Of a stretch of DNA of 19,666 bases, positions 1 through 19,666 are shown one piece after another; within the stretch, counting starts at the first letter, position 1, and the number at the start of each line of letters is the position of its first letter. Location: positions 1-19,666 of the forward strand of contig JBGAFW010000028.1 of assembly GCA_044227045.1 (NCBI GenBank). The letters run 5' to 3'. A program made the translations under genes and the position numbers. Below the pieces are notes generated by a model. It searched no databases, was not told the DNA's origin, and worked only from the letters and a program-made list of their open reading frames with translations. This stretch comes from Labilithrix sp. GTDB taxonomy: Bacteria > Myxococcota_A > Polyangia > Polyangiales > Polyangiaceae.

Positions 1-1443
1 GTCGTCGCTGCGAGACACTTGCAGCTCGATCAGCTCGTCGCGATGAAGTTCCTTCGCAAGGGCGCGGTCGAGAGCTCCGAAGCGTCGATGCGGTTCCTTC
101 GCGAAGCGAAGGCCGTCGTGAAGCTTCGCAACGAGCACGTCGCGAAGGTCTACGACGTCGGCACGCTCGAGAGCGGCGAGCCGTACATCGTGATGGAGCA
201 CCTCGACGGCTGCGATCTCGCAGCCCTCGCGAAGCAACGTCACACGCTCGAGGTCGGTGAGGCGGTCGAGTACGTGATGCAGGCGTGCGAGGCGCTCGCC
301 GAAGCGCACACGCTCGGGATCGTTCATCGCGACATCAAGCTCGCCAATCTCTTCGTGACGCGTGGTCCCGCCGGTGGGCCGCTCGTGAAGGTCCTCGACT
401 TCGGCATCTCGAAGACGAACCCCTTCGGCGAGTCGGAGCACGACATGACGCGCACCGCGTCGATGCTCGGAAGCCCGCGCTTCATGTCCCCCGAGCAGAT
501 GCGCGATCCACGCGCGGTCGACGCGCGCTCGGACATCTGGTCGCTCGGCGTCGTGCTCTATCGCCTCGTCGCCGGTCATCCGCCGTTCGAGGCAGACACG
601 CTGGGTCGGCTCCTCACGATGGTCATGCACGAGCAAGAGCCGCCGCTGTCGGCCGTGCGCCACGACCTTCCGCACGGCTTCGACATCGTCGTCGGTCGCT
701 GCTTGCAGAAGGATCCCAACCAACGCTTCTCGAACGTCGCAGAGCTCGCGTACGCGCTCGTTCCGTTCTCGGTCGATCCCGCGCGCGCGCGGAGCTCGGC
801 CGACCGCATCGCCGCCGTCTTGAGCTTGCCGATGCTTCCGCCGATCACCGGCGACATCTCGATCCCGATCTCGGTCGGCGCGCCGGCGTCGAGCCGAAGC
901 CACTCGGGTCGCATCAGCAATCCTCCGGGCGCGAGCGACACGGGCACGGCGGCTCCTTGGGCCGGCACGCACGGCGGCGGCTCCCGCACGCCGCGCACGG
1001 GCTCACGTGGGACGACGATCTGGCTGGGCGTCGCGCTCGCCGGCATCCTCGTCGGCTCCGCCATCTTCGCGAAGGTCCGCCGCGATCAGCAGCACGACGC
1101 CCAAGCGCAGCAGCGCGCCGAGCAGCAGCAAGCCGCCGCCGCGCAGCAGCTCCCCGTCGTCACCGCGACGATGACCGCGTCGCCGAATCCTCCGCCCGCG
1201 ACGCAGCCTTCGTTCGATCCGAGCCCCACGCCCCCGGCCGCGGTCGTGATCGGGGCTTCGCCGTCCACCCAGCAGCAGCAGCAGCCCCAGCCCGTCGCGG
1301 CGTCCCCCCAGAGCCCGCCGCGCGGCGCCGCCGTCGTGCGCGGTGGTACGCGCAAGCAGCCCACACCGCCGTCTTCGCCGCGCCCGTCGACTCCGTCTCC
1401 GAAGTCGAATGAGGGTGACGGTATCCCTACGACGCGCGATTAA
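1..1443 (+). CDS. Hanks-type Ser/Thr protein kinase, truncated at the 5' end by the window edge; kinase domain, single TM helix, Gln/Pro-rich extracytoplasmic tail
   Basis: Frame 1 is open from nt 1 and the Gly-loop must lie upstream. Canonical motifs are present: VAMK (subdomain II Lys), HRDIKLANLF catalytic loop, DFGISK, SPE, DIWSLGVVLY and a subdomain XI Arg. A hydrophobic helix TTIWLGVALAGILVGSAIFAKV follows, then a low-complexity Q/P/A/S-rich C-terminus. The stop TAA is at 1441-1443. Confidence 0.9.
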   Translation, partial: VVAARHLQLDQLVAMKFLRKGAVESSEASMRFLREAKAVVKLRNEHVAKVYDVGTLESGEPYIVMEHLDGCDLAALAKQRHTLEVGEAVEYVMQACEALAEAHTLGIVHRDIKLANLFVTRGPAGGPLVKVLDFGISKTNPFGESEHDMTRTASMLGSPRFMSPEQMRDPRAVDARSDIWSLGVVLYRLVAGHPPFEADTLGRLLTMVMHEQEPPLSAVRHDLPHGFDIVVGRCLQKDPNQRFSNVAELAYALVPFSVDPARARSSADRIAAVLSLPMLPPITGDISIPISVGAPASSRSHSGRISNPPGASDTGTAAPWAGTHGGGSRTPRTGSRGTTIWLGVALAGILVGSAIFAKVRRDQQHDAQAQQRAEQQQAAAAQQLPVVTATMTASPNPPPATQPSFDPSPTPPAAVVIGASPSTQQQQQPQPVAASPQSPPRGAAVVRGGTRKQPTPPSSPRPSTPSPKSNEGDGIPTTRD

Positions 1444-3880: not shown

Positions 3881-5683
3881 ATGCTTCTGCGACCGCTCTT
3901 CGCGACCCTCCTCGTGACGTGCGTCGGTGCCAGCGCGGCATGCTCGGCCGACGCCTCCTCGGACGGAACGGACGACGCGGAGTCGGGCGAAGACGAGCTT
4001 CGGTTTCGCGCAGGCGCGGTCGACAAGACGCTGCCGGAGGTCGACGCGCAGGGCTACGAGATCGATCTGAAGGTCAACGACGTCCCTGGTCACGAGACGT
4101 TCACCGCCTCGGTCAAAGGCAACTACATCGCGACCGCCGATCTCACGACGCTCACGCTCGACTTCGAGGGCAACACGATCGACGACGTGACCGTGAGCGG
4201 ACGTCACGCGGAGCACACGCGCGACGGATCGAAGCTCGTCATCAAGCTCCCTTCTCGGATCGCGAGCGGCCGATCGCTGTCCACGCGCGTCACCTACCAC
4301 GGCGATCTCGCGCAGGTGGACGGCGCCGACCCGAACGACTTCGCCGCGTTTGGCGGCTTCATGGTCAAGCAGCGCAACACCGAGGGCAAGCGCATCTACT
4401 CCTCGCTGAGCTGGCCCTACAAAGCGCGTCGATGGCTGCCGCTCCGCGATCACCCGCGCGACGCCGCGATGGTGGCGATCTCGGCGACGTTCCCGAAGGC
4501 CTTCACCGTGCTCGCGAACGGAAAGCGCGTCAGCACGCAGGACAACGCGTCCGACGGATCGAAGACGTGGCGCTACGAAGCGCTCACGCCGATGCCCGCC
4601 TACGACTTCCACGTGTCTGCCTACGAAGGCTGGTCCGTCCACGAGGAGCACGCCGCGTCAGGCGTCCCCGTCACGTCGTACATGTACGCGAACGCGTCGT
4701 CGAAGCAGTCGAAGATCTACGGTGATCTCCCGAAGGTGCTCGACTTCTACGAGGCCACCTTCGGCAAGTACAAGTGGGGCTCGGCGACGTTCATCGAGGA
4801 GCCCATCTTCGGTGGTGGAATGGAGCACGCGTCCGTCGTGAGCATGGACGAGACGCTCTTCCCCGACCCGGTCGAGGCGCGAAAGACCGCCTTCCACGAG
4901 CTCGCGCATCATTGGAGCGGCAACCTCGTTCACTTCCGGCAGTGGAACGACTTCTGGCTCTCCGAGGGCTTCACCGAGTACCTCACCGGCCGCGCGATCA
5001 CGCACGTCGACGGCGCCGAGGCAGGCAAGGCGGTCTGGCGCGAATACCTCACGACGGCGCTCCAAGAGGATCGATCGAATCCCCATCCGCTCGCTCCGCC
5101 GGGCGAAGAGATCGACGTGCTCACGATCTTCGACGGCATCTCGTATCAAAAGGGCGCGCTGACGCTCCGGATGCTCGAGCACATCGTCGGCGAGCCGAAG
5201 ATGACGGCGTTCCTCAAAGGTTGGTTCGATCGCCATGGCTTTGGCGCCGCGGTGAGCACCGATGACTTGCAGCGCGAGCTCTCCGCCGAGTCGGGCAAGG
5301 ATCTCTCCGCGTTCTTCGCGTCGTTCGTTCGTCAGGGCTACCACCCCGAGCTACGCGTGACGTTCACCGCGAACGGCACCAGCACCGACGTGAAGGTCGA
5401 GCAGCTTCAAGACAAAGGCCCCGCTGGCGGGTTCGCTGGCTTCCCGCTCGACGTCGACCTCGTCGACGACGCCGGCCACGCCGAGCGCGTCAGCGTCGAC
5501 ATCACGGGCAAGACGTCGACGAAGCGATTCACGACGACGCGTCCGACCAAATCGATCGTCGCTGATCCCGACGAGTACGCCGTCGCCGTCGAGACCTGCG
5601 GTCAGACCGGCGGGGGCGAATGCAAAGCGAGCCAGCGCTGCGCGCCCCAACGCGCCGGTGTCTCGGCCTGCGTCCCGAAGTAG
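3881..5683 (+). CDS. M1-family zinc metallopeptidase (aminopeptidase N-like gluzincin), secreted or lipoprotein
   Basis: HELAHHWSGN...18 aa...WLSEGFTEY is the HEXXH-(18)-E zinc site. GGMEH matches the GXMEN exopeptidase motif. The signal peptide is MLLRPLFATLLVTCVGASAAC, with Cys candidates for lipidation. The start at ATG 3881 was chosen because GC3 rises sharply there. In-frame ATG 3863 and GTG 3830 are alternatives, but codon third positions upstream of 3881 look non-coding. The Cys-rich C-terminal tail is CGQTGGGECKASQRCAPQRAGVSAC. Confidence 0.88.
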   Translation: MLLRPLFATLLVTCVGASAACSADASSDGTDDAESGEDELRFRAGAVDKTLPEVDAQGYEIDLKVNDVPGHETFTASVKGNYIATADLTTLTLDFEGNTIDDVTVSGRHAEHTRDGSKLVIKLPSRIASGRSLSTRVTYHGDLAQVDGADPNDFAAFGGFMVKQRNTEGKRIYSSLSWPYKARRWLPLRDHPRDAAMVAISATFPKAFTVLANGKRVSTQDNASDGSKTWRYEALTPMPAYDFHVSAYEGWSVHEEHAASGVPVTSYMYANASSKQSKIYGDLPKVLDFYEATFGKYKWGSATFIEEPIFGGGMEHASVVSMDETLFPDPVEARKTAFHELAHHWSGNLVHFRQWNDFWLSEGFTEYLTGRAITHVDGAEAGKAVWREYLTTALQEDRSNPHPLAPPGEEIDVLTIFDGISYQKGALTLRMLEHIVGEPKMTAFLKGWFDRHGFGAAVSTDDLQRELSAESGKDLSAFFASFVRQGYHPELRVTFTANGTSTDVKVEQLQDKGPAGGFAGFPLDVDLVDDAGHAERVSVDITGKTSTKRFTTTRPTKSIVADPDEYAVAVETCGQTGGGECKASQRCAPQRAGVSACVPK

Positions 5684-5803
5684 CAGCGCTCGGCCGCGCG
5701 AAACACGAGCACCTGTACGAACCTGCAGGTTTTCCGTGGGATCACGGGGTCGCGATGACCGTTGGTGGATGAAGTTAATTGGGCGATACTCGTCTCCTTC
5801 TCT

Positions 5804-6823
5804 ATGCCGAAGAAGGACGACGCGGAAAGCAAGGCGACGACGGACGGCGAGCACGGCGAGCACGGCTCCGGCCACATCATCCAGTCGCTGCTCGTCAACA
5901 TCGCCATCGCGCTCGTGAAGGCGGTCGCAGCGTTCTTCACGAAGTCGGGCTCGATGCTCGCCGAGGCGCTCCACTCCTTCTCCGATTGCGGCAACCAGGT
6001 CCTCCTGCTCGTGGGCGTTCGACAGTCGAAGAAGCCCGCCGACGACACGCACCCCTTCGGCTATGGGCGCGCGATCTATTTCTGGTCTTTCATGGTGGCG
6101 CTCCTGCTCTTCCTCGGCGGCGGCGCCTTCTCCATCTACGAAGGCATCCACAAGATCCGTGAGCCCGAGCCGGTCGAGCGCGTGTGGCTTGGCATCGGGA
6201 TCCTCGCGGTGTCGCTCGTGCTCGAAGGGAGCGCGACGCTCTCGAACATTCGCGAGCTCAACAAGCGACGCGGCGACAAGGCGTTCGTCCAGTACCTACG
6301 CGACACGACCGACTCGGATCTCGTCGTGGTGTTCGGTGAGAACTCCGCGGCGGTGCTCGGGCTGTTCTTCGCGATCGCCGCGCTTGGTCTCTCCGCCGCG
6401 ACCGGAGATGGCCGCTGGGACGGCATCGGCAGCGTCGCGATCGGCCTCGTGCTCGTCGGCGTGGCGGGCTTCCTCGCGATCGAGGTGAGCTCGCTGCTCC
6501 TCGGCGAAGCGGCGCCGCCGGAGATCACGGACGCGGCGCACGACACCGCCAAGCGCTTCACCGACATCGAGAAGATCCTGAACGTCGTGACGATGCAGCA
6601 AGGACCAGGCGAGGTGCTCGTTCACATCAAGGCGTCGTTCACCGCCACGCTCACGATCGAGGATGCCTGCCGCGTCATCAACGAGTACGAAGCCGCGCTC
6701 CGCGCCGCGCGCCCCGAGATCCGTTGGGTGTTCGTGGAGCCGGACATCCCGAAGACGCCGTCGCAGCTCAAGCCGCGCAACGCGATCGTGAAGACGCGCG
6801 CGATCAGCAAAGACGCGAACTGA
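5804..6823 (+). CDS. Cation diffusion facilitator (CDF) family divalent-metal efflux transporter with His-rich N-terminus
   Basis: TM2 carries HSFSD (HxxxD). The N-terminus is His-rich (DGEHGEHGSGH). There are six predicted TM helices and a typical C-terminal cytoplasmic domain (VHIKASFTATLTIEDACRVINEYE). ATG 5804 was chosen because the 42-nt in-frame extension from TTG 5762 has low GC3. Confidence 0.88.
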   Translation: MPKKDDAESKATTDGEHGEHGSGHIIQSLLVNIAIALVKAVAAFFTKSGSMLAEALHSFSDCGNQVLLLVGVRQSKKPADDTHPFGYGRAIYFWSFMVALLLFLGGGAFSIYEGIHKIREPEPVERVWLGIGILAVSLVLEGSATLSNIRELNKRRGDKAFVQYLRDTTDSDLVVVFGENSAAVLGLFFAIAALGLSAATGDGRWDGIGSVAIGLVLVGVAGFLAIEVSSLLLGEAAPPEITDAAHDTAKRFTDIEKILNVVTMQQGPGEVLVHIKASFTATLTIEDACRVINEYEAALRAARPEIRWVFVEPDIPKTPSQLKPRNAIVKTRAISKDAN

Positions 6824-6828
6824 CGGCC

Positions 6829-8238
6829 TTACTGAAAGACCGTGCGCGTGACGCGGATGCCGTGCTTTGGACGGAGCGTGATGAGTGGATCGAGCACGAC
6901 ACGGTGACCCGGCTCGAGGCGAAGCTTCTCTTCGCGCACGATCATCGCGAGGATGATCTGCGCCTCCATCATCGCGAAGTGGTTCCCAATGCACATCCGC
7001 GAACCGCCGCCGAACGGCAGGTACGCATAGCGCGGCCGCTTCTCGTTGTTCGACGGCAAGAAGCGATCGGGGTTGAAGCGCTCGGGCTCGTCCCAGAAGC
7101 GTGGGTGCCGGTGGAGCACGTATGGGCAGATCCCGACGATGCTCCCCGTCTTCGCGGTGTACGCGCCGAGCACGTCGGGCTCCGTCGATTGCCGTTCGAA
7201 GATCCACGCCGGCGGGTAGAGGCGTAATCCCTCCTCGAGGACGCGCTTCGTGTACTCGAGGTGCTTCGTGTCCTCGAGCGTCGGCGCGCGATCGGGTCCG
7301 AGCACGCGGTGGGCTTCGTCGCGGATCTTCGCCTCGATCTCCGGATGCGCGGCGAGCAGCGAGAATGTCCACGACAGGAGATTCGCCGTCGTCTCGTGCC
7401 CCGCGAGCACCATCGTGATGACCTCGTCGCGAAGCTGGATGTCGTTCATCTTCGCGCTCGCGGCGTCGGCGGCGTCTTCGTCGACCGCCTCCATCAGCAT
7501 GCCGAGCAGGTCGTCACCGAAGCCGTTCTTCTCGCCGTCGTGACGTGCGGCCTGCTCGCGGCGATCGCGAATCAGGCGGTACACGATCCCATCGAGCGTA
7601 CGCATCGCGCGGTTGAACCGGACGTTGTTCGGCGTCGGGATGGACGGCGGGATCCGCACGATCGACTCGGCGTAGTCGTTCGCCCAGCGAAGCGCTGTGT
7701 CGAGCGCGCGGCCGACCTCGCGTGCATCTCCATCGACGTCTGCCGAGAACAACGTGAGGCCGACGATCCGAAACGTGAGCCGCATCATCTCTTCGTGCAC
7801 GCAGAACGTCTCGAGCCGGTCGTGCTTCCAGCGATCGAGCATCGCCCGCGTCGCCTCGGCCATCTGATCGGCGAAGTGACTGAGCCGCGCGCGATGAAAC
7901 GCGGGCTGCGCGAGCTTTCGCTGCCGTCGCCACGCCTCGCCCTCGCTCGTGAGGAGCCCCTCGCCGAGGACGATCTTGAGCCCCATGTAGTTGCGGCTCT
8001 TCTTGTACGCCTTCGCGTTGTCGATCAAGACGTGATGGATCACATCGGGATCCGCGAGCATGTAGTAGTCCCACGGACCGAACTTGAAGCGCACGACATC
8101 GCCGTATTGCCTGTGCGACTCGAGCATCAGCCCCAAGGGATCGCGCCACGCAGGGAGCACGCTCCCGAGCAGCGGCAGCCCTCGCGGGCCTGGAGCGATA
8201 CGGGGCGTCGTGACGTCGGCTCGGCTCGTGTTGGTCAT
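6829..8238 (-). CDS. Cytochrome P450 monooxygenase
   Basis: FGGGSRMCIGNHFA is the heme-thiolate loop (FxxGxRxCxG). AGHETTAN is the I-helix AGxETT motif. EEGLRLYPP is the ExxR motif. PERFNPDRF is the PERF motif. The ATG (reverse complement of cat at 8236-8238) is the first point with high GC3; the upstream in-frame extension to 8310 looks non-coding. The gene is convergent with the CDF gene, with only a 5-bp gap. Confidence 0.93.
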   Translation of the reverse strand: MTNTSRADVTTPRIAPGPRGLPLLGSVLPAWRDPLGLMLESHRQYGDVVRFKFGPWDYYMLADPDVIHHVLIDNAKAYKKSRNYMGLKIVLGEGLLTSEGEAWRRQRKLAQPAFHRARLSHFADQMAEATRAMLDRWKHDRLETFCVHEEMMRLTFRIVGLTLFSADVDGDAREVGRALDTALRWANDYAESIVRIPPSIPTPNNVRFNRAMRTLDGIVYRLIRDRREQAARHDGEKNGFGDDLLGMLMEAVDEDAADAASAKMNDIQLRDEVITMVLAGHETTANLLSWTFSLLAAHPEIEAKIRDEAHRVLGPDRAPTLEDTKHLEYTKRVLEEGLRLYPPAWIFERQSTEPDVLGAYTAKTGSIVGICPYVLHRHPRFWDEPERFNPDRFLPSNNEKRPRYAYLPFGGGSRMCIGNHFAMMEAQIILAMIVREEKLRLEPGHRVVLDPLITLRPKHGIRVTRTVFQ

Positions 8239-8271
8239 CGGATGGTCTTTCGGCGGAGCAACGTTCCACGA

Positions 8272-8291
8272 ACGTGAGATAATCCTCACGT
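8272..8291. promoter_or_regulatory. Operator-like palindrome 1 (ACGTGAG-ataatc-CTCACGT), 34-53 nt upstream of the P450 start
   Basis: Perfect 7-bp inverted arms flank a 6-bp AT-rich spacer. It shares the core AATCCTCAC(G/A)TTTG with site 2, 28 bp away. It lies between divergent TetR and P450 genes. Confidence 0.6.
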
Positions 8292-8300
8292 TTGATAGAA

Positions 8301-8318
8301 TCTGAGGCAATCCTCACA
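8301..8318. promoter_or_regulatory. Operator-like palindrome 2 (TGAGG-caat-CCTCA), 30-49 nt upstream of the TetR start
   Basis: The arms are TGAGG and CCTCA. The direct-repeat core aatcctcacatttg (8309-8322) is paralogous to aatcctcacgtttg (8281-8294). A possible -35 TTGATA (8292-8297) and a weak -10 CACATT (8315-8320) are 17 bp apart, so site 2 would sit in the spacer. Confidence 0.55.
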
Positions 8319-8349
8319 TTTGTCAATCGACGCCGACGAGAAAGCGAGA

Positions 8350-9102
8350 ATGCCCTCGAAATCGCCCAAAAAAGCCTCCCCTCCCCAAGGCGCCGAGGTC
8401 GCGGCGGACGCAGAAAATCGCAGGGTGCCGACGCAGGAGCGGAGCCGCCAGCGCGTCGCGCGCATTCTGGATGCGGCCGCCAGCGTCTTCGCCGAGCAAG
8501 GCCACGACGCCGCGACGATGGAGGCGATCGCGGCGAAGGCGGAGACCTCGATCGGATCGATCTACCAATTCTTTCCGAACAAGGCGGCCGTGTTCGACGC
8601 GCTCGTGCGGCGCTACCACGGGGCCATTCGCGCGTTTCTCGACAACATCTTGCAGGAGGAGCTCGCCCGCGCGCATCCGCTTGGCGACATCATCGACACG
8701 TCGATCGACGCGCTCACCACGCTGCACGAGACCGATCTTGGCTTTCGCGCGGTGTGGGCTGGGATGCATCTCACGAAGACGGTCGTCCGCGAAGGCGAGG
8801 CGCTGAACCAGGAGATCGCGCGGAGGATCGCGCAGGTCCTCGCGCCCAAGCTCCCCGGCCTCCCTGCGTCTCGCCACCTCCTCGTCGCGACGATGGTGGT
8901 CGAGATCGTCAGCGCGATGCTGATCTTCTCGGCGCGCCGGCTGAGCAGCGGCGAGCCAAACGCGCGCCGCGAGCGGATGTCGGAGACGAAGCTTCTCCTC
9001 CGGCGATATCTCGCGCCGTATGAAGTACCGGCAGGCGCGTCCCATTCGACGAATGCCCCGCAAAAAGTGGCAAAACGCAGCAAGCGCGCACGGTCGCGCT
9101 GA
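8350..9102 (+). CDS. TetR/AcrR-family transcriptional regulator
   Basis: The N-terminal HTH is RILDAAASVFAEQGHDAATMEAIAAKAETSIGSIYQFFPNKAAVFDAL, a classic TetR_N. The C-terminal half is an all-helical ligand-binding domain. ATG 8350 is preceded by the purine-rich stretch gagaaagcgaga. The gene is divergent from the P450. Confidence 0.93.
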   Translation: MPSKSPKKASPPQGAEVAADAENRRVPTQERSRQRVARILDAAASVFAEQGHDAATMEAIAAKAETSIGSIYQFFPNKAAVFDALVRRYHGAIRAFLDNILQEELARAHPLGDIIDTSIDALTTLHETDLGFRAVWAGMHLTKTVVREGEALNQEIARRIAQVLAPKLPGLPASRHLLVATMVVEIVSAMLIFSARRLSSGEPNARRERMSETKLLLRRYLAPYEVPAGASHSTNAPQKVAKRSKRARSR

Positions 9103-9221
9103 GCCGAAGGCGCGGCCGCGAGATGGCATGAAGACCACGAGAAGTGATCGTCCATTGCGCCAGCTGAGGCTGTAAGATTAGGGTGGCACGGGCTCTCGGT
9201 TGGGGCCGCCGTGCTTCAGCC

Positions 9222-10793
9222 ATGGCCGGCGATATTCGGAGCAAGAAGCCGAAGGTTCTGGGCGCGCGCGTCGCGGGGCTGCGGCTCACGCCCGAAGAGC
9301 GCTTCGTCATGGCACGCATCGACGGCCGGCTCTCCGTCGACGAGCTCGCGAGCGTGACGGGCCTCGAAGGTGATCGCCTCGAGAAGATCGTCTCGAAGCT
9401 CGCGTTCGACGGGGCGGTCGATCTCGGCGAGGAGCCTCGCTTCGCCGCCGCGGCCGCGGCCTTCGCGCCGGCCGAGGGAGAGACGACGTCGATGGCGGAG
9501 CTCGCGGCGGCGCTCGGCATGGATCCGAGCTCGTTTGGCGGAGGAAAGACCGCGCCGGTCGAGATGCCTCCCCCGACGCCGCGCAAGGTGATCGTCCGCC
9601 CGAAGATTCGCCCGAAGGCCGACCCGAGCGCGGTGGGCCTGGCGACGGCGCCTGCGCCTGCGGCCGAGGAAGCCGCGCCGCCGGTGCCCGCGGCACACGA
9701 CAGCGAACGCGATTTGCCCGACGTGCAGTCGGCGCTCGACCTCGCCGCGCTCGAAGCCTTCGGCGACGAGACGCCTCCCGACGCCGAGCCTGCGTCGCCG
9801 GGCGATCCCCCTCGCCGGGCCGCGCCACGCGCGCAGCAAGCCAAGAACCGCGCCGCCGTCGACGAAGCCCCGCCGCAGCTCGATGAGCTCGAAGAGGTCC
9901 ATGACGAGCTCGAGGAGGTCCACGACGAGCTCGAGGAGGTGCACGACGAGCTCGAAGAGGTCCACGACGAAGAGGACCAGCTCATCGAGCTCGATGATGA
10001 GGGAAACCCCGTCAGTCGTTCGGAGCAAAACGCACGTGACCGCGCCAGCGATCGCGAGCAAAAGGAAGAGGACGAGGTCTCACGCGCCGTCGCCGAGCGC
10101 AACTACCGCCAGGTGTTCGAGAAGAGCTGGCATCCGCTGCCCGTCGACCAGCGCATCGCGGGGGCGCGCACGGCGCACGGTCCCGACTTGCTCGCGCTGT
10201 GCTTCGATCCCGATCCGCGCGTCATCGCCGCCATCCTCGAGAACTCGACGGTGGGCCTCGATCACGTTCGCTTGATCGCCTTTTACCATCGTACCGGGAC
10301 GGGCCTCGAGATCGTCGCCCGCCGTCAGGACTGGCTCCGCGACATCCTCGTCGAGCGCCGCCTCCTGCGTAACCCGATGATCGGCGACATCGTGCTCTCG
10401 CGCGTGATGGGCCCGAAGCGGCTCTTCCAGACGTACAAGATCGCGATCGATCGCGAGATCCCCGAGCTCACGCGGACGAAGGTACGCGGCTACATCCGGC
10501 AGAAATGGCAGAACGCCACCTCGGAGGAGCGCGCCGATCTCTTGCTCCGGACGGAGGCCCGCTGCCTCATCATCATGACCGGCTGCACCTTCGACGCGAA
10601 GACGACCGCGATCCTCTGCGGCCGTCCGATCAACTCCGTCATGTTCGTGCAGTCGATCGCGAAGTTCCCCGCCTCACCGCCCGCGCTCCTCGCGCATTTG
10701 ATGAAGCAGAACTTCGTGCGGAAGAACCCGCCGCTGAAAAAGATGCTCCTCGCCCACCCGAACATGCCGGGTGACGTGAAGCGAAACATCTAG
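9222..10793 (+). CDS. Hypothetical protein: conserved-looking N-terminal about 70-aa domain, long Pro/Ala/Asp-rich disordered region containing (ELEEVHD)4, C-terminal about 260-aa alpha-helical (HEAT/ARM-like) domain
   Basis: The ORF runs to TAG 10791-10793. ATG 9222 is preferred over GTG 9183 because the 39-nt extension has low GC3. The N-terminus is LTPEERFVMARIDGRLSVDELASVTGLEGDRLEKIVSKLAFDGAV. The C-terminal region has repeated amphipathic helices (DPRVIAAILENSTVGLDHVRLIAF ... PALLAHLMKQNFVRKNPPLKKMLLAHPNMP). I do not recognise a named family. Confidence 0.75.
   Translation: MAGDIRSKKPKVLGARVAGLRLTPEERFVMARIDGRLSVDELASVTGLEGDRLEKIVSKLAFDGAVDLGEEPRFAAAAAAFAPAEGETTSMAELAAALGMDPSSFGGGKTAPVEMPPPTPRKVIVRPKIRPKADPSAVGLATAPAPAAEEAAPPVPAAHDSERDLPDVQSALDLAALEAFGDETPPDAEPASPGDPPRRAAPRAQQAKNRAAVDEAPPQLDELEEVHDELEEVHDELEEVHDELEEVHDEEDQLIELDDEGNPVSRSEQNARDRASDREQKEEDEVSRAVAERNYRQVFEKSWHPLPVDQRIAGARTAHGPDLLALCFDPDPRVIAAILENSTVGLDHVRLIAFYHRTGTGLEIVARRQDWLRDILVERRLLRNPMIGDIVLSRVMGPKRLFQTYKIAIDREIPELTRTKVRGYIRQKWQNATSEERADLLLRTEARCLIIMTGCTFDAKTTAILCGRPINSVMFVQSIAKFPASPPALLAHLMKQNFVRKNPPLKKMLLAHPNMPGDVKRNI
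9885..9968 (+). repeat. Perfect in-frame tandem repeat of 4 x 21 bp (gagctcga[a/g]gaggt[c/g]ca[t/c]gac) encoding (ELEEVHD)4
   Basis: Units occupy 9885-9905, 9906-9926, 9927-9947 and 9948-9968 and differ only at synonymous or wobble positions. Flanking codons continue the pattern loosely: LDELEEVHD upstream and EEDQLIELDDE downstream. Confidence 0.95.
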
Positions 10794-13884: not shown

Positions 13885-14400
13885 TTGGCCGATTCCGCGT
13901 CTCGCAATGTAAAGGGCGTCCTCTTCACGGACTATGTCCGCATGATCCGTGGCAAGAAGGACGTGGACTGGGGCAAGCACCTGAGCCCCGAGGAGATGAG
14001 CTACCTGGTCAGCCGGGTGGACCCGAACGGGTGGTACCCGATGCTCTCCTTCGAGCGGATGGGAAACGCGATCCTGAAAGAGATCGCGGGAGGCCAGGTG
14101 GAGGCCGCGCGGATGTGGGGACGCATCAGCGTCGACCAACTCCGGATGGCCACGCCCCAGCTCTTCGACTTCGACGCGCTCGAGGTGAAGAGCGCCATCT
14201 CGAACCACGCCGCGATCGTGATTCACTACCACATGGGCGCGATGGCCGAGGAGGCCGCCTCGAACCAGACGATGGGGTTCTTCGAGCGCCTGCTCGTGAT
14301 CGCGGGCGCCGAGGGCGTCGACGCACGCTTCACCTCGCGGTCGTGGAAGGGCGACAAACAGACGCTGCTCGAGCTCCACTGGCAGCCCCCGAACATGTGA
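13885..14400 (+). CDS. Small soluble protein of unknown function (171 aa from TTG 13885; 152 aa if ATG 13942 is used)
   Basis: Composition is balanced and W/Y/M-containing with no low complexity, which contrasts with the Arg/Gly/His-rich antisense ORF at 13762-14415. A stop at 13876-13878 bounds the 5' end. The only in-frame starts are TTG 13885 and ATG 13942. The gene ends 60 nt before the hybrid histidine-kinase gene on the same strand. Confidence 0.6.
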   Translation: MADSASRNVKGVLFTDYVRMIRGKKDVDWGKHLSPEEMSYLVSRVDPNGWYPMLSFERMGNAILKEIAGGQVEAARMWGRISVDQLRMATPQLFDFDALEVKSAISNHAAIVIHYHMGAMAEEAASNQTMGFFERLLVIAGAEGVDARFTSRSWKGDKQTLLELHWQPPNM

Positions 14401-18234: not shown

Positions 18235-19666
18235 ATGGGTCGGGCGGAGGCACTTCTCGGCACGAGTCTCGAGTCGCGATACCGACTCGATGCCGTCGTC
18301 ACCGAGTCGCCAGACCTCTTCGTCTTCTCCGGTGAGGACACGCAAGGAACGCCGAATGGCTCCTCGCTGCCGATCGTCATTCGCATGCCGCGAGCACCAC
18401 GCGGCATGTCGATCCAGGAGATCGACGAGGCCTACGCGAAGTTCGCGACCGAGGCGACGCAGCTCGCCGCGATCAGCCGCGCCTCGCCCCATGTCGAGCG
18501 GCTCCTCGCGTCGGGCGAGGTCGAGACGCCCGACCGCGAACGGCTCGCGTTCTGCGTGTTCGAGCGCACCGAGGGCTCCTCGCTCGCCGAGTCGTCACGT
18601 GATCGAGGTGCGACGTCGCTGCAGGCGGCGGTGAAGCTGCTCGATCCGATCGCGTCGGCGCTGGCGACCGCGCACGCGCAAGGCGTCTTTCACGGCGATG
18701 TCCGTCCGGAGAACATCGTCGTCGTCGGGGGTCTCGACGCCGAGCGCCCAGCGCTGAAGCTCCTTCGCTTCACGCTCGCGACGCGCCTCGCGACCGGCGC
18801 TCGCGCGTTCTCTCCGCAGTATGGCGCGCCCGAGCATTTCAAGAAATCGTTCGGCGAGAGCTCGCTGGGTCCGCCCGTCGACGTGTATGGCCTCGCGCTC
18901 TGCCTCATCGAGCTCGTCGTCGGTCAACCTGCGCTCACGGGGACCTCCACGACGGAGCTCTACAAGCAGACGACGGACATCACGCGCCGTCCCACGTTGC
19001 GCGCTCGCGGCGCCGAGGTCTCGGAGGCGATCGATCTCGTGGTCGCGCGCGCCCTCGCGGTGAATCCCAAGCTCCGCTGGCCCACAGCGAAGGACTTCTG
19101 GTCGGCGCTCACCGCGCTCACGGGCCTTGGCGCGCTGACGGAGCCGACCGCGATCCCGATCACGCCTCTTCCTCTTCCGATCGCGACCCCTGCCCCAGCC
19201 CCAGCCCTAGAGCCACTCCTGGACGAAGCCGCGAGCGCGCGCAGCTCTCGGCTCTCGATCACCACCGAGCCGACGCCCGCGATCCCGCCGCCTCCCGGAA
19301 GTCAGCCCAACGTCGTCGCGCCGCCGCCTCCGCCCACGCGCGTGCCGATGTCGCTCGCGCCCTCCTCGACGCCGGCGCCCTCGTCGTCGAAGCCAAAGCG
19401 ACTCGCGAAGGACGCGGCGCGGAGCCATGAGCCCGCGGTCCTTCGTCGTCTCGACGAGGGCGCGGCCGAGTCGCATCCTCCGCGTGGGACGCTCCGCGAT
19501 CCCCGCGCCCGTGCGATCGCGATCGCGGCCGCGAGCCTCGTCACGCTCGCGATCGGCGGGACGCTCATCGCCTCGGTGTTCCGCCGATCGACACCCGCCG
19601 AGCCCACCGCGACCTCCGCGGTAGCGACCTCCTCCACCGCGCCGCCCGTGCCGCTGACCGCATCAT
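18235..19666 (+). CDS. Membrane-anchored predicted pseudokinase: degenerate Hanks kinase fold, Pro-rich linker, TM helix; 3' end runs off the window
   Basis: This ORF is absent from the supplied track because it has no stop in the window. ATG 18235 is in the same frame as the histidine-kinase gene, 42 nt after its TGA, and is the only start codon in that interval; GGGGAG lies immediately upstream. The kinase-like fold is retained: RASPHVERLL, FCVFERTEGSSL, the APE-like YGAPEHF, and DVYGLALCLIELVVG. Catalytic residues are replaced. There is no GxGxxG (TESPDLFVFSGED). VAIK-Lys becomes Arg (PIVIRMP). HRDxK becomes HGDVR. DFG becomes RFT (LKLLRFTLA). A PxP-rich segment and the helix AIAIAAASLVTLAIGGTLIASVF follow. 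Confidence 0.8.
   Translation, partial: MGRAEALLGTSLESRYRLDAVVTESPDLFVFSGEDTQGTPNGSSLPIVIRMPRAPRGMSIQEIDEAYAKFATEATQLAAISRASPHVERLLASGEVETPDRERLAFCVFERTEGSSLAESSRDRGATSLQAAVKLLDPIASALATAHAQGVFHGDVRPENIVVVGGLDAERPALKLLRFTLATRLATGARAFSPQYGAPEHFKKSFGESSLGPPVDVYGLALCLIELVVGQPALTGTSTTELYKQTTDITRRPTLRARGAEVSEAIDLVVARALAVNPKLRWPTAKDFWSALTALTGLGALTEPTAIPITPLPLPIATPAPAPALEPLLDEAASARSSRLSITTEPTPAIPPPPGSQPNVVAPPPPPTRVPMSLAPSSTPAPSSSKPKRLAKDAARSHEPAVLRRLDEGAAESHPPRGTLRDPRARAIAIAAASLVTLAIGGTLIASVFRRSTPAEPTATSAVATSSTAPPVPLTAS

Follow-up and report, generated by a model that had tools for sequence, protein, structure and literature searches.

In Tn10, the TetR regulator and its target are divergent and separated by a short spacer of 81 bp, and the centres of the operators tetO1 and tetO2 are about 30 bp apart. 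These two palindromic operators are located inside overlapping divergent promoters, and the repressor controls both genes (PMC3511530). Moreover, by an experimentally derived rule, a TetR regulator whose divergent neighbour is less than 200 bp away generally acts as its repressor (PMC3511530). On the CAM plasmid of Pseudomonas putida, the cam operon (camDCAB) encodes redox partners. Work by Aramaki, Fujita et al. in 1993-95 is said to have placed camR and camDCAB in divergent orientation, with overlapping promoters around a single operator. CamR is a TetR homologue that represses the P450cam system as well as itself, and leaves its operator upon binding of camphor, the substrate of the P450 (PMC4592980). 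The CYP102 enzymes of Bacillus are P450-reductase (diflavin) fusions. Their Bm3R1 and FatR regulators are co-oriented with the P450, not divergent. Bm3R1 and FatR are TetR-family repressors dedicated to the Bacillus CYP102 P450, with a palindromic operator from which they are displaced by P450 substrates (PMC3814354).

The window, which means the whole stretch of DNA analysed here (19,666 nt, G+C 66.6%), contains a divergent pair of a cytochrome P450 gene and a TetR-family gene, as the initial annotation had proposed; Pfam confirmed both identities, and the ATG coordinates were exact. The two ATGs (the P450 ATG reads as CAT at 8236-8238) are separated by a spacer of 111 bp (8239-8349). The real frames were picked by GC3, which is 0.85 for the P450 gene, and the features are listed in Table 1. 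The other genes of the window encode a Ser/Thr kinase, an RCC1-repeat protein, an M1 peptidase, a cation-efflux protein, MscL, a DUF481 protein, an AgmX/PglI-tail protein, a ceramidase-like protein, a large hybrid histidine kinase, and a protein of 536 aa without family match directly after tetR. The P450 gene appears to be monocistronic, with the convergent cation-efflux gene ending at 6823. The region downstream of the P450 in the related loci described below was compared for a shared operon partner that could hint at the substrate; the GC3-based ORF heuristic, which is too noisy for this purpose, gave none that recurred consistently. No redox partner of the P450 was found among the neighbouring genes of the window, and the Rfam, tRNA and tandem-repeat scans of the window gave no match relevant to the spacer.

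Table 1. Coordinates of the genes, predicted operators and predicted promoter elements in the window.
Feature	Position	Strand	Remarks
Cation-efflux gene	5762-6823		convergent with the P450 gene, away from the operators
Cytochrome P450 gene	6829-8238	-	469 aa; presumed regulated effector; Pfam p450, E=1.6e-88
Operator site 1 (P450-proximal), predicted	8271-8292	.	AACGTGAGATAATCCTCACGTT; perfect 8+8 inverted repeat, 8271-8278 / 8285-8292
tetR promoter -35 GTGAGA, predicted	8274-8279	+	inside site 1
Alternative tetR -35 TTGATA, candidate	8292-8297	+	17-nt spacer to CACATT at 8315-8320
tetR promoter extended -10 TGaTAGAAT, predicted	8293-8301	+	its last three bases also form positions 1-3 of site 2; inferred start near 8308
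Operator site 2 (TetR-proximal, core operator), predicted	8299-8320	.	AATCTGAGGCAATCCTCACATT; in register with site 1
P450 promoter -10 CAGATT, predicted	8299-8304	-	outer left arm of site 2; 16 nt from the -35; inferred start near 8292
P450 promoter -35 TTGACA (reverse complement TGTCAA), predicted	8321-8326	-	abuts site 2 on the TetR side
TetR-family regulator gene	8350-9102	+	250 aa from the ATG at 8350; Pfam TetR_N and TetR_C_15/TetR_C_22

Comparison with the known systems showed both similarities and differences. The 111-bp divergent spacer with its palindromes falls within the '<200 bp' rule (PMC3511530). The arrangement resembles that of Tn10 in the divergent regulator and target, the short spacer and the two palindromes, and the distance between the centres of the two sites (28 bp) is near that of Tn10; the overlap with promoters is predicted here from the consensus and from conserved hexamers. 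However, the presumed target gene encodes a soluble P450 instead of a transporter that exports the inducer; the operator sequence AAYRTGAGG-N4-CCTCAYRTT is unrelated to tetO; and the C-terminal domain of the regulator is of the TetR_C_15 type, not the tetracycline-binding domain. The likeness to CamR is one of function, namely a TetR homologue with a P450, and the action of the regulator is predicted in the present case. CamR has one operator of another sequence (CAGGCTCTATATCTGCGATATACTGAGCAT) (PMC4592980), whereas two sites are present here; moreover, the P450 here stands alone, without the redox partners of the cam operon. The P450 belongs to the same broad branch as the CYP102 enzymes (match to the BM3 haem domain, E about 1e-43); however, it consists of a haem domain of 469 aa only. 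Judged by these sequence comparisons, the pair is a member of neither the CYP102/FatR system nor any named P450 equivalog.

The two sites are a single 22-bp element in the same register, with the consensus AAYRTGAGG-N4-CCTCAYRTT. The outer arms match at 8/8 positions in site 1 and at 7/8 in site 2, and a repeat search returned the pair as a 25-nt direct repeat (8270-8294 and 8298-8322) with 80% identity and 28-bp spacing. The shared core AATCCTCAC(G/A)TTTG, already recognized by the initial annotation, occurs exactly twice in the 19.7-kb window (8281-8294 and 8309-8322), where 0.06 copies are expected by chance; none of 200 shuffles contained two or more copies. The palindromes it had described, ACGTGAG-N6-CTCACGT (8272-8291) and TGAGG-N4-CCTCA (8303-8316), are both exact, and so is the distance of 34-53 nt between the former and the P450 ATG. 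The distance of 30-49 nt from the TetR ATG is correct for 8301-8320, whereas the core palindrome at 8303-8316 lies at 34-47 nt. The simpler pattern TGAG-N6-CTCA was found in the window at 8275 and 8303 only (0.25 expected). Using a weight matrix trained on the homologous P450-linked sites, site 1 and site 2 scored 32.0 and 33.4 bits, respectively; the next best position of the window scored -3.4 bits, and the best score across 50 shuffles was 9.2 bits.

The half-site GTGAG/CTCAC is also present in the SlmA site, which is GTGAG-TA-CTCAC. However, TGAGG and CCTCA are separated by N4 here and by N2 in the SlmA site, and the gene context and function also differ. The SlmA NCBIfam model gave a weak match to the N-terminal part of TetR (E=2.3e-8, 33.9 bits vs the cutoff of 120), so the regulator is not SlmA. 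Literature searches on the operator sequences and on myxobacterial TetR-P450 systems found no description of this pair or of these operators; within that literature the operator, the TetR subfamily (TetR_C_15 type) and the P450 clade appear to be uncharacterised.

The conservation of the locus was analysed in two ways. In the protein-anchored scan, one genome per species was searched with an alignment of the TetR homologues, and tblastn was used for the gene pair. The divergent TetR-P450 pair was found in loci L001-L007, L009-L013 and L015, which come from Labilithrix, Polyangiaceae, Sandaracinus and other myxobacterial metagenome-assembled genomes, with sequence identities of 38-66% for TetR and 49-74% for P450. 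A pair with 36% and 38% identity, respectively, is also present in a Deinococcus metagenome-assembled genome (L016). The two sites are kept in 14/14 myxobacterial loci found by the TetR protein only, while the spacer is otherwise unalignable. Since these loci were picked by protein only, the presence of the sites in them is an unbiased test. The start-to-start spacing of the two sites in the orthologous loci is most often 28 bp and varies between 26 and 38 bp. This variable spacing argues against a strict helical phase and suggests that two dimers might bind independently; it also means that site 1 has no constant distance from the transcription start.

In the DNA-anchored scan, metagenome contigs were searched with the palindrome alone, and at least one strict site was the selection criterion. 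Among the 120 loci obtained, 64 have a TetR homologue (27-62% identity) that starts within 400 bp of the site. The association was found in 43/49 of the loci with two sites 20-45 bp apart; one more of these has a weak TetR_N match, and two are at contig ends. The single-site loci without TetR have G+C contents spread over 31-73%, as would be expected if a 32-bit pattern were matched by chance in a collection of very large size. The genomes and metagenomes together gave 92 TetR-plus-site loci (40 with a divergent P450, 36 with enough sequence for a P450 but with another partner, and 16 too short for a decision), although many of the metagenomic loci are related or duplicated (e.g. L013 and L113), and the counts therefore overstate the independent observations. 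Homologues of site 2 are present in 40/40 P450-linked loci and in 42 other TetR loci (with different partners or on short contigs), and homologues of site 1 in 37/40 P450-linked loci. The weight matrix, which was trained on such sites, likewise detected two sites in 37/40, and no further sites in these loci, where up to 14 kb per locus was scanned. In other loci, this operator and TetR subfamily accompany a PEMT/ICMT-like methyltransferase, isochorismatase, acyl-CoA dehydrogenase or NAD-epimerase, and also with MFS, Rieske, transglutaminase-like and other proteins. The conserved sequence and number of the palindromes and their co-occurrence with TetR support the view that they would behave as cognate operators of this TetR subfamily.

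The pattern of conservation within the 22-bp element points in the same direction. The near-invariant positions are 1-2 (AA), 5-9 (TGAGG) and their mirrors; positions 3 and 4 are Y and R, and the N4 in the middle is unconstrained. Where the arms vary, complementarity is in weak excess over random pairing (65 vs 56±5 and 68 vs 55±5.5), and there is none in the centre. Arms that are conserved as sequence, a free N4 and at most a weak excess of complementarity fit a DNA site to which a protein dimer binds, and not an RNA hairpin under selection. It might still be supposed that the palindromes act as hairpins in the 5' UTR, stabilising or attenuating the P450 mRNA, or that some regulator besides the neighbouring TetR binds them; for instance, site 1 is predicted to be part of the P450 5' UTR and could form a stem of 8 bp there. 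However, the arm bases are invariant and not compensatory, the commonest pair at positions 3/20 (T/G) would be a C-A mismatch in P450-sense RNA, there is no match to an Rfam family, and site 2 is located upstream of the predicted P450 transcription start. Moreover, the motif tracks the TetR gene regardless of the partner. Both variants of this explanation are highly unlikely, and the two 22-bp palindromes are almost certainly genuine repressor-binding sites, as far as can be judged from sequence.

The -35 of the P450 promoter is probably located beyond site 2, on the TetR side. Site 1 is separated from the P450 ATG by 32 nt, which are not conserved. With only these 32 unconserved nt before the ATG, the P450 promoter would not be on the P450 side and would have to overlap the operators. 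On the other side of the spacer, TGTCAA (with up to one mismatch) was found at -1 to +2 nt from the TetR-proximal site in 37/40 P450 loci, 29 of them with a perfect match, and beside the TetR-proximal site in 14/14 protein-anchored myxobacterial loci. TTGACA, its reverse complement, is the -35 consensus of sigma-70. The frame of the TTG of this element relative to tetR varies among loci (0, 1 or 2); without a constant reading frame, TGTCAA should be a DNA-level element. The spacing from TTGACA to CAnnTT, the reverse complement of the left operator arm, is 15-18 nt across loci, with a mode of 16. A promoter scanner also reported the corresponding promoter on the minus strand of L015 (TTGACG-17-CATATT) and of L028; for the latter it gave matches in both directions. 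The -10 element of the P450 promoter is inferred only: CAGATT is a weak hexamer (3/6) that would also be fixed by the palindrome, and it is therefore not independent evidence.

Two other assignments of the same bases were considered and rejected. TTGTCAA does not seem to be conserved as a start codon of tetR (TTG at 8320), given the frames of 0, 1 or 2 across loci. The possibility that TTGTCA is a plus-strand -35 element of tetR was also rejected, because in L001-L003 and L008 the sole in-frame start lies upstream, inside the operator arm, and because no -10 follows.

The TGTCAA/TTGACA element could alternatively be an outer part of the operator for a second TetR dimer, which would extend the palindrome to about 36 bp and resemble the dimer-of-dimers of QacR. 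Three single-site loci (L141, L143 and L194) do have a near-symmetric TTGACAG-AATGTGAGG-N4-CCTCACGTT-GTCAA. However, the hexamer lies at a variable offset (-1 to +2 nt) from the core palindrome, 33/40 P450 loci lack the left-hand copy, and site 1 has no outer partner; the hexamer is also the sigma-70 -35 consensus at a promoter-like spacing. An extended operator is improbable, and the hexamer is better regarded as the putative -35 of the P450 promoter.

Two alternative promoters of tetR fit the window. The promoter scan found GTGAGA (8274)-16-TAGAAT (8301) as the sole sigma-70-type match in 8150-8450 (9/12; shuffle mean 0.0). A -10-like hexamer (at least 4/6) ending at position 3 of the TetR-proximal site was found in 29/40 P450 loci, and five loci with other partners have a perfect TATAAT there. 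T occupies position 3 in 34/40 TetR-proximal sites vs 10/37 P450-proximal sites. Such an asymmetry is not expected of a pure palindromic operator and suggests an added promoter constraint. The second candidate uses the alternative -35 element in Table 1, at which TTGACA (with up to one mismatch) was found in 7/40 P450 loci and 13/42 others, mostly with the 28-bp spacing; in many loci of this spacing the match is perfect.

These elements bear on the claim that each divergent start has its own operator, in which site 1 would serve a P450-side promoter and site 2 a separate autoregulation of tetR. Each site is nearest to one start codon, and accounts of Tn10-type systems are commonly reduced to this form; whereas the 32 nt between site 1 and the P450 ATG are neither conserved nor promoter-like, the conserved TTGACA in the P450 direction lies beyond site 2, and the best match to a tetR promoter begins within site 1. 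In the PEMT-linked relatives, moreover, the divergent ATG is just 11 nt from the distal site. This part of the initial annotation is unlikely to be correct; the conserved hexamers indicate a crossed, overlapping layout, in which both sites probably act on both promoters.

The spacer is therefore best described, with good but not full confidence, as a compact bidirectional promoter-operator, in which TetR would act at the two palindromes over overlapping promoters, with repression, autoregulation and release by a ligand. TetR, presumably as dimers, would bind the 22-bp palindromes at 8271-8292 and 8299-8320. The P450 promoter would have its -35 at 8326 to 8321, site 2 as its spacer and -10, and a start near 8292, which would place site 1 at about +1 to +22 of the transcript. 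The tetR promoter might have its -35 inside site 1, an extended -10 that ends in site 2, and a start inside site 2. Site 2 would thus cover the spacer and -10 of the P450 promoter together with the +1 region of tetR, and site 1 the -35 and spacer of the tetR promoter together with the +1 region of the P450. Since the predicted promoters overlap one another as well as the two operators, TetR at either site should block both promoters, which would result in P450 repression and negative autoregulation. A small-molecule ligand, if there is one, might bind the C-terminal domain of TetR and lead to release.

Binding of TetR to the sites could also activate the P450 or tetR itself, since a minority of TetR-family proteins, such as AtrA, are activators (PMC3511530). 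The operators, however, overlap the predicted -35, -10 and +1 of both promoters, which is a geometry of repression, and the activating or non-regulating TetRs in the same survey had spacers of more than 200 bp (PMC3511530). Activation is very improbable, and repression from both sites would remain the expected mode of action.

The variation among the distant loci may suggest a wider reading. The recognition-helix motif [ST]SIGS[ILV]YQFFPNK in the HTH of the TetR homologues is kept wherever the TGAG half-site occurs, whereas more distant members of the subfamily have CGAG half-sites and an S-[VP]-G-S recognition motif. Tentatively, and with somewhat more doubt than confidence, the TetR-proximal operator may be a self-contained, near-symmetric bidirectional cassette that has stayed intact across several phyla while at least eight types of partner were swapped, with the change from TGAG to CGAG tracking that from SIGS to S-[VP]-G-S. 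The layout of such a cassette would be a -10 of tetR, a palindrome with -10-like outer arms and an inverted TTGACA -35 for the partner. The phyla concerned include Myxococcota, Acidobacteriota, Chloroflexota and others; the partner types are P450, PEMT-like methyltransferase, isochorismatase, acyl-CoA dehydrogenase, NAD-epimerase, MFS, Rieske and transglutaminase-like proteins. If this is true, the subfamily would be a natural, portable and re-targetable sensor chassis.

The analysis supplies a precise two-copy operator and a promoter model for a widespread TetR_C_15-type subfamily and a stand-alone P450 clade. Its practical value might be a defined sensor and promoter for the building of reporters and the search for the inducer, which could be a route to the P450 substrate; the correction of the operator-promoter assignment matters for such engineering. 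The conceptual novelty is low, as this would be a classic TetR switch, and the understanding of TetR regulation is unchanged.

The TetR gene has an in-frame alternative start (TTG at 8320), which would give a protein of 260 aa and matches the public annotation; the public protein P0001 is 100% identical to TetR and 260 aa long. The N-terminal domain was assigned to TetR_N (PF00440, E=1.1e-15, 57.5 bits vs the cutoff of 24, residues 39-85), and the C-terminal domain to TetR_C_15 (E=1e-15, 58.6 bits vs the cutoff of 26.8). The AlphaFold2 model is all-helical with 10 helices (mean pLDDT 84.8), and its top Foldseek matches are all TetR regulators, including FasR, FadR, KstR, EthR2 and DesT, which indicates the canonical TetR fold. 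An assignment of the ligand class from these structural neighbours was rejected: lipid and acyl-CoA sensors are at the top, but the matches are weak (E about 1e-5, TM 0.5-0.6). The NCBIfam model of the Bacillus FadR also gave 34 bits only, vs the cutoff of 200.

The P450 contains a p450 domain only (Pfam), with no fused reductase, and its translation has intact AGHETTA, ExxR, PERF and FGGGSRMCIG motifs. The closest relatives of both TetR and P450 are proteins from Labilithrix and other Polyangia metagenome-assembled genomes, which makes a Labilithrix-like myxobacterium the probable source of the DNA. The P450 clade is stand-alone and abundant in soil myxobacteria, with hundreds of homologues (57-97% identity) that are publicly named as 'cytochrome P450' only. 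None of the NCBIfam equivalog cutoffs was reached by the P450; for example, the score was 281.7 bits vs the cutoff of 700 for the albaflavenone monooxygenase CYP170A1, and 265 bits vs 800 for the pentalenene oxygenase. By analogy only with CamR and camphor and with FatR and fatty acids, it is plausible that the P450 substrate is also the TetR inducer; that this substrate is lipophilic or terpenoid is a reasonable guess at most. Literature searches on PDB 7wzl/7wzm found no description of this TetR-P450 system. The closest solved structures to the P450 are 7wzl (276 bits), CYP97A3 (251 bits) and CYP170A1 (202 bits), and CYP97C1 is also near. Among these, 7wzl is an unnamed putative P450, CYP97A3 and CYP97C1 are carotenoid hydroxylases of plants, and CYP170A1 is a sesquiterpene oxidase.

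The operator pair and the TetR subfamily of the P450 locus were also found divergent from genes that do not encode a P450. The partners include PEMT/ICMT-like membrane methyltransferases at seven comparison loci (L114, L177, L189, L179, L119, L152, and L097), isochorismatases at four (L136, L146, L180, and L199), and acyl-CoA dehydrogenases (L143 and L194) and NAD-epimerase/3-beta-HSD proteins (L014 and L082) at two loci each. MFS_3, Rieske, and transglutaminase-like partners occur at one locus each, and a siderophore-interacting protein is the partner at a single Streptomyces locus. In Chondromyces apiculatus DSM 436 (L008, 3829-3890; TetR identity 52%), both operators and the TGTCAA element are present; the tblastn search revealed no P450 beside tetR, and the upstream ORFs that were tested had no Pfam match. 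This locus may represent the loss or replacement of the partner, and as it comes from a cultured strain, it could serve for experiments.

The distant members of the TetR family are from Deinococcus, Actinocorallia, and Acidimicrobiales. These loci (L016, 3900-3930; L018 and L021, about 3920-3990) have the same architecture as the window, including the trailing TT(T/C)(G/T)TCAA; their half-sites are CGAG/CTCG, and their recognition helix has S-[VP]-G-S in place of S-I-G-S. Comparison of these sequences, from only three to four loci, suggests that the two changes may reflect specificity covariation.

The start of the window TetR is ambiguous (Table). P0001, the identical public protein, is 260 aa long and has as its start a TTG whose first base is the final base of operator 2. 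The ATG start gives a K/P-rich N-terminus resembling those of the homologues. At L001-L003 and L008, the sole in-frame tetR start is an ATG within the right arm of the operator, and the operator GAGG, 8 nt 5' of this ATG, is a possible Shine-Dalgarno sequence. The weak palindrome CGAGAATGCCCTCG, flagged as terminator-like on the minus strand, extends across the TetR ATG of the window; its operator weight-matrix score is -5, and it is therefore probably a chance occurrence.

The 536-aa ORF downstream may be co-transcribed with tetR. It had no match in Pfam or NCBIfam, and its conservation at this place is confined to L001-L006, the six closest loci. Its tandem repeat encodes DELEEVH units in an acidic, low-complexity linker. 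Elsewhere, two Ser/Thr-kinase-type genes, the kinase gene and the protein-kinase-like ORF of the Table, flank the window.

Table. Positions of the features in the window.
Feature	Position	Strand	Remark
Kinase gene	19-1443		
TetR start, TTG	8320		
TetR start, ATG	8350		
Weak palindrome	8345-8358		
536-aa ORF	9183-10793	+	begins 80 bp past tetR
21-bp tandem repeat	9881-9970		4.3 copies, inside the 536-aa ORF
171-aa ORF	13885-14400	+	GC3 = 0.91
Protein-kinase-like ORF	about 18235-19666	+	HGDVRPENIVV motif; runs past the right end
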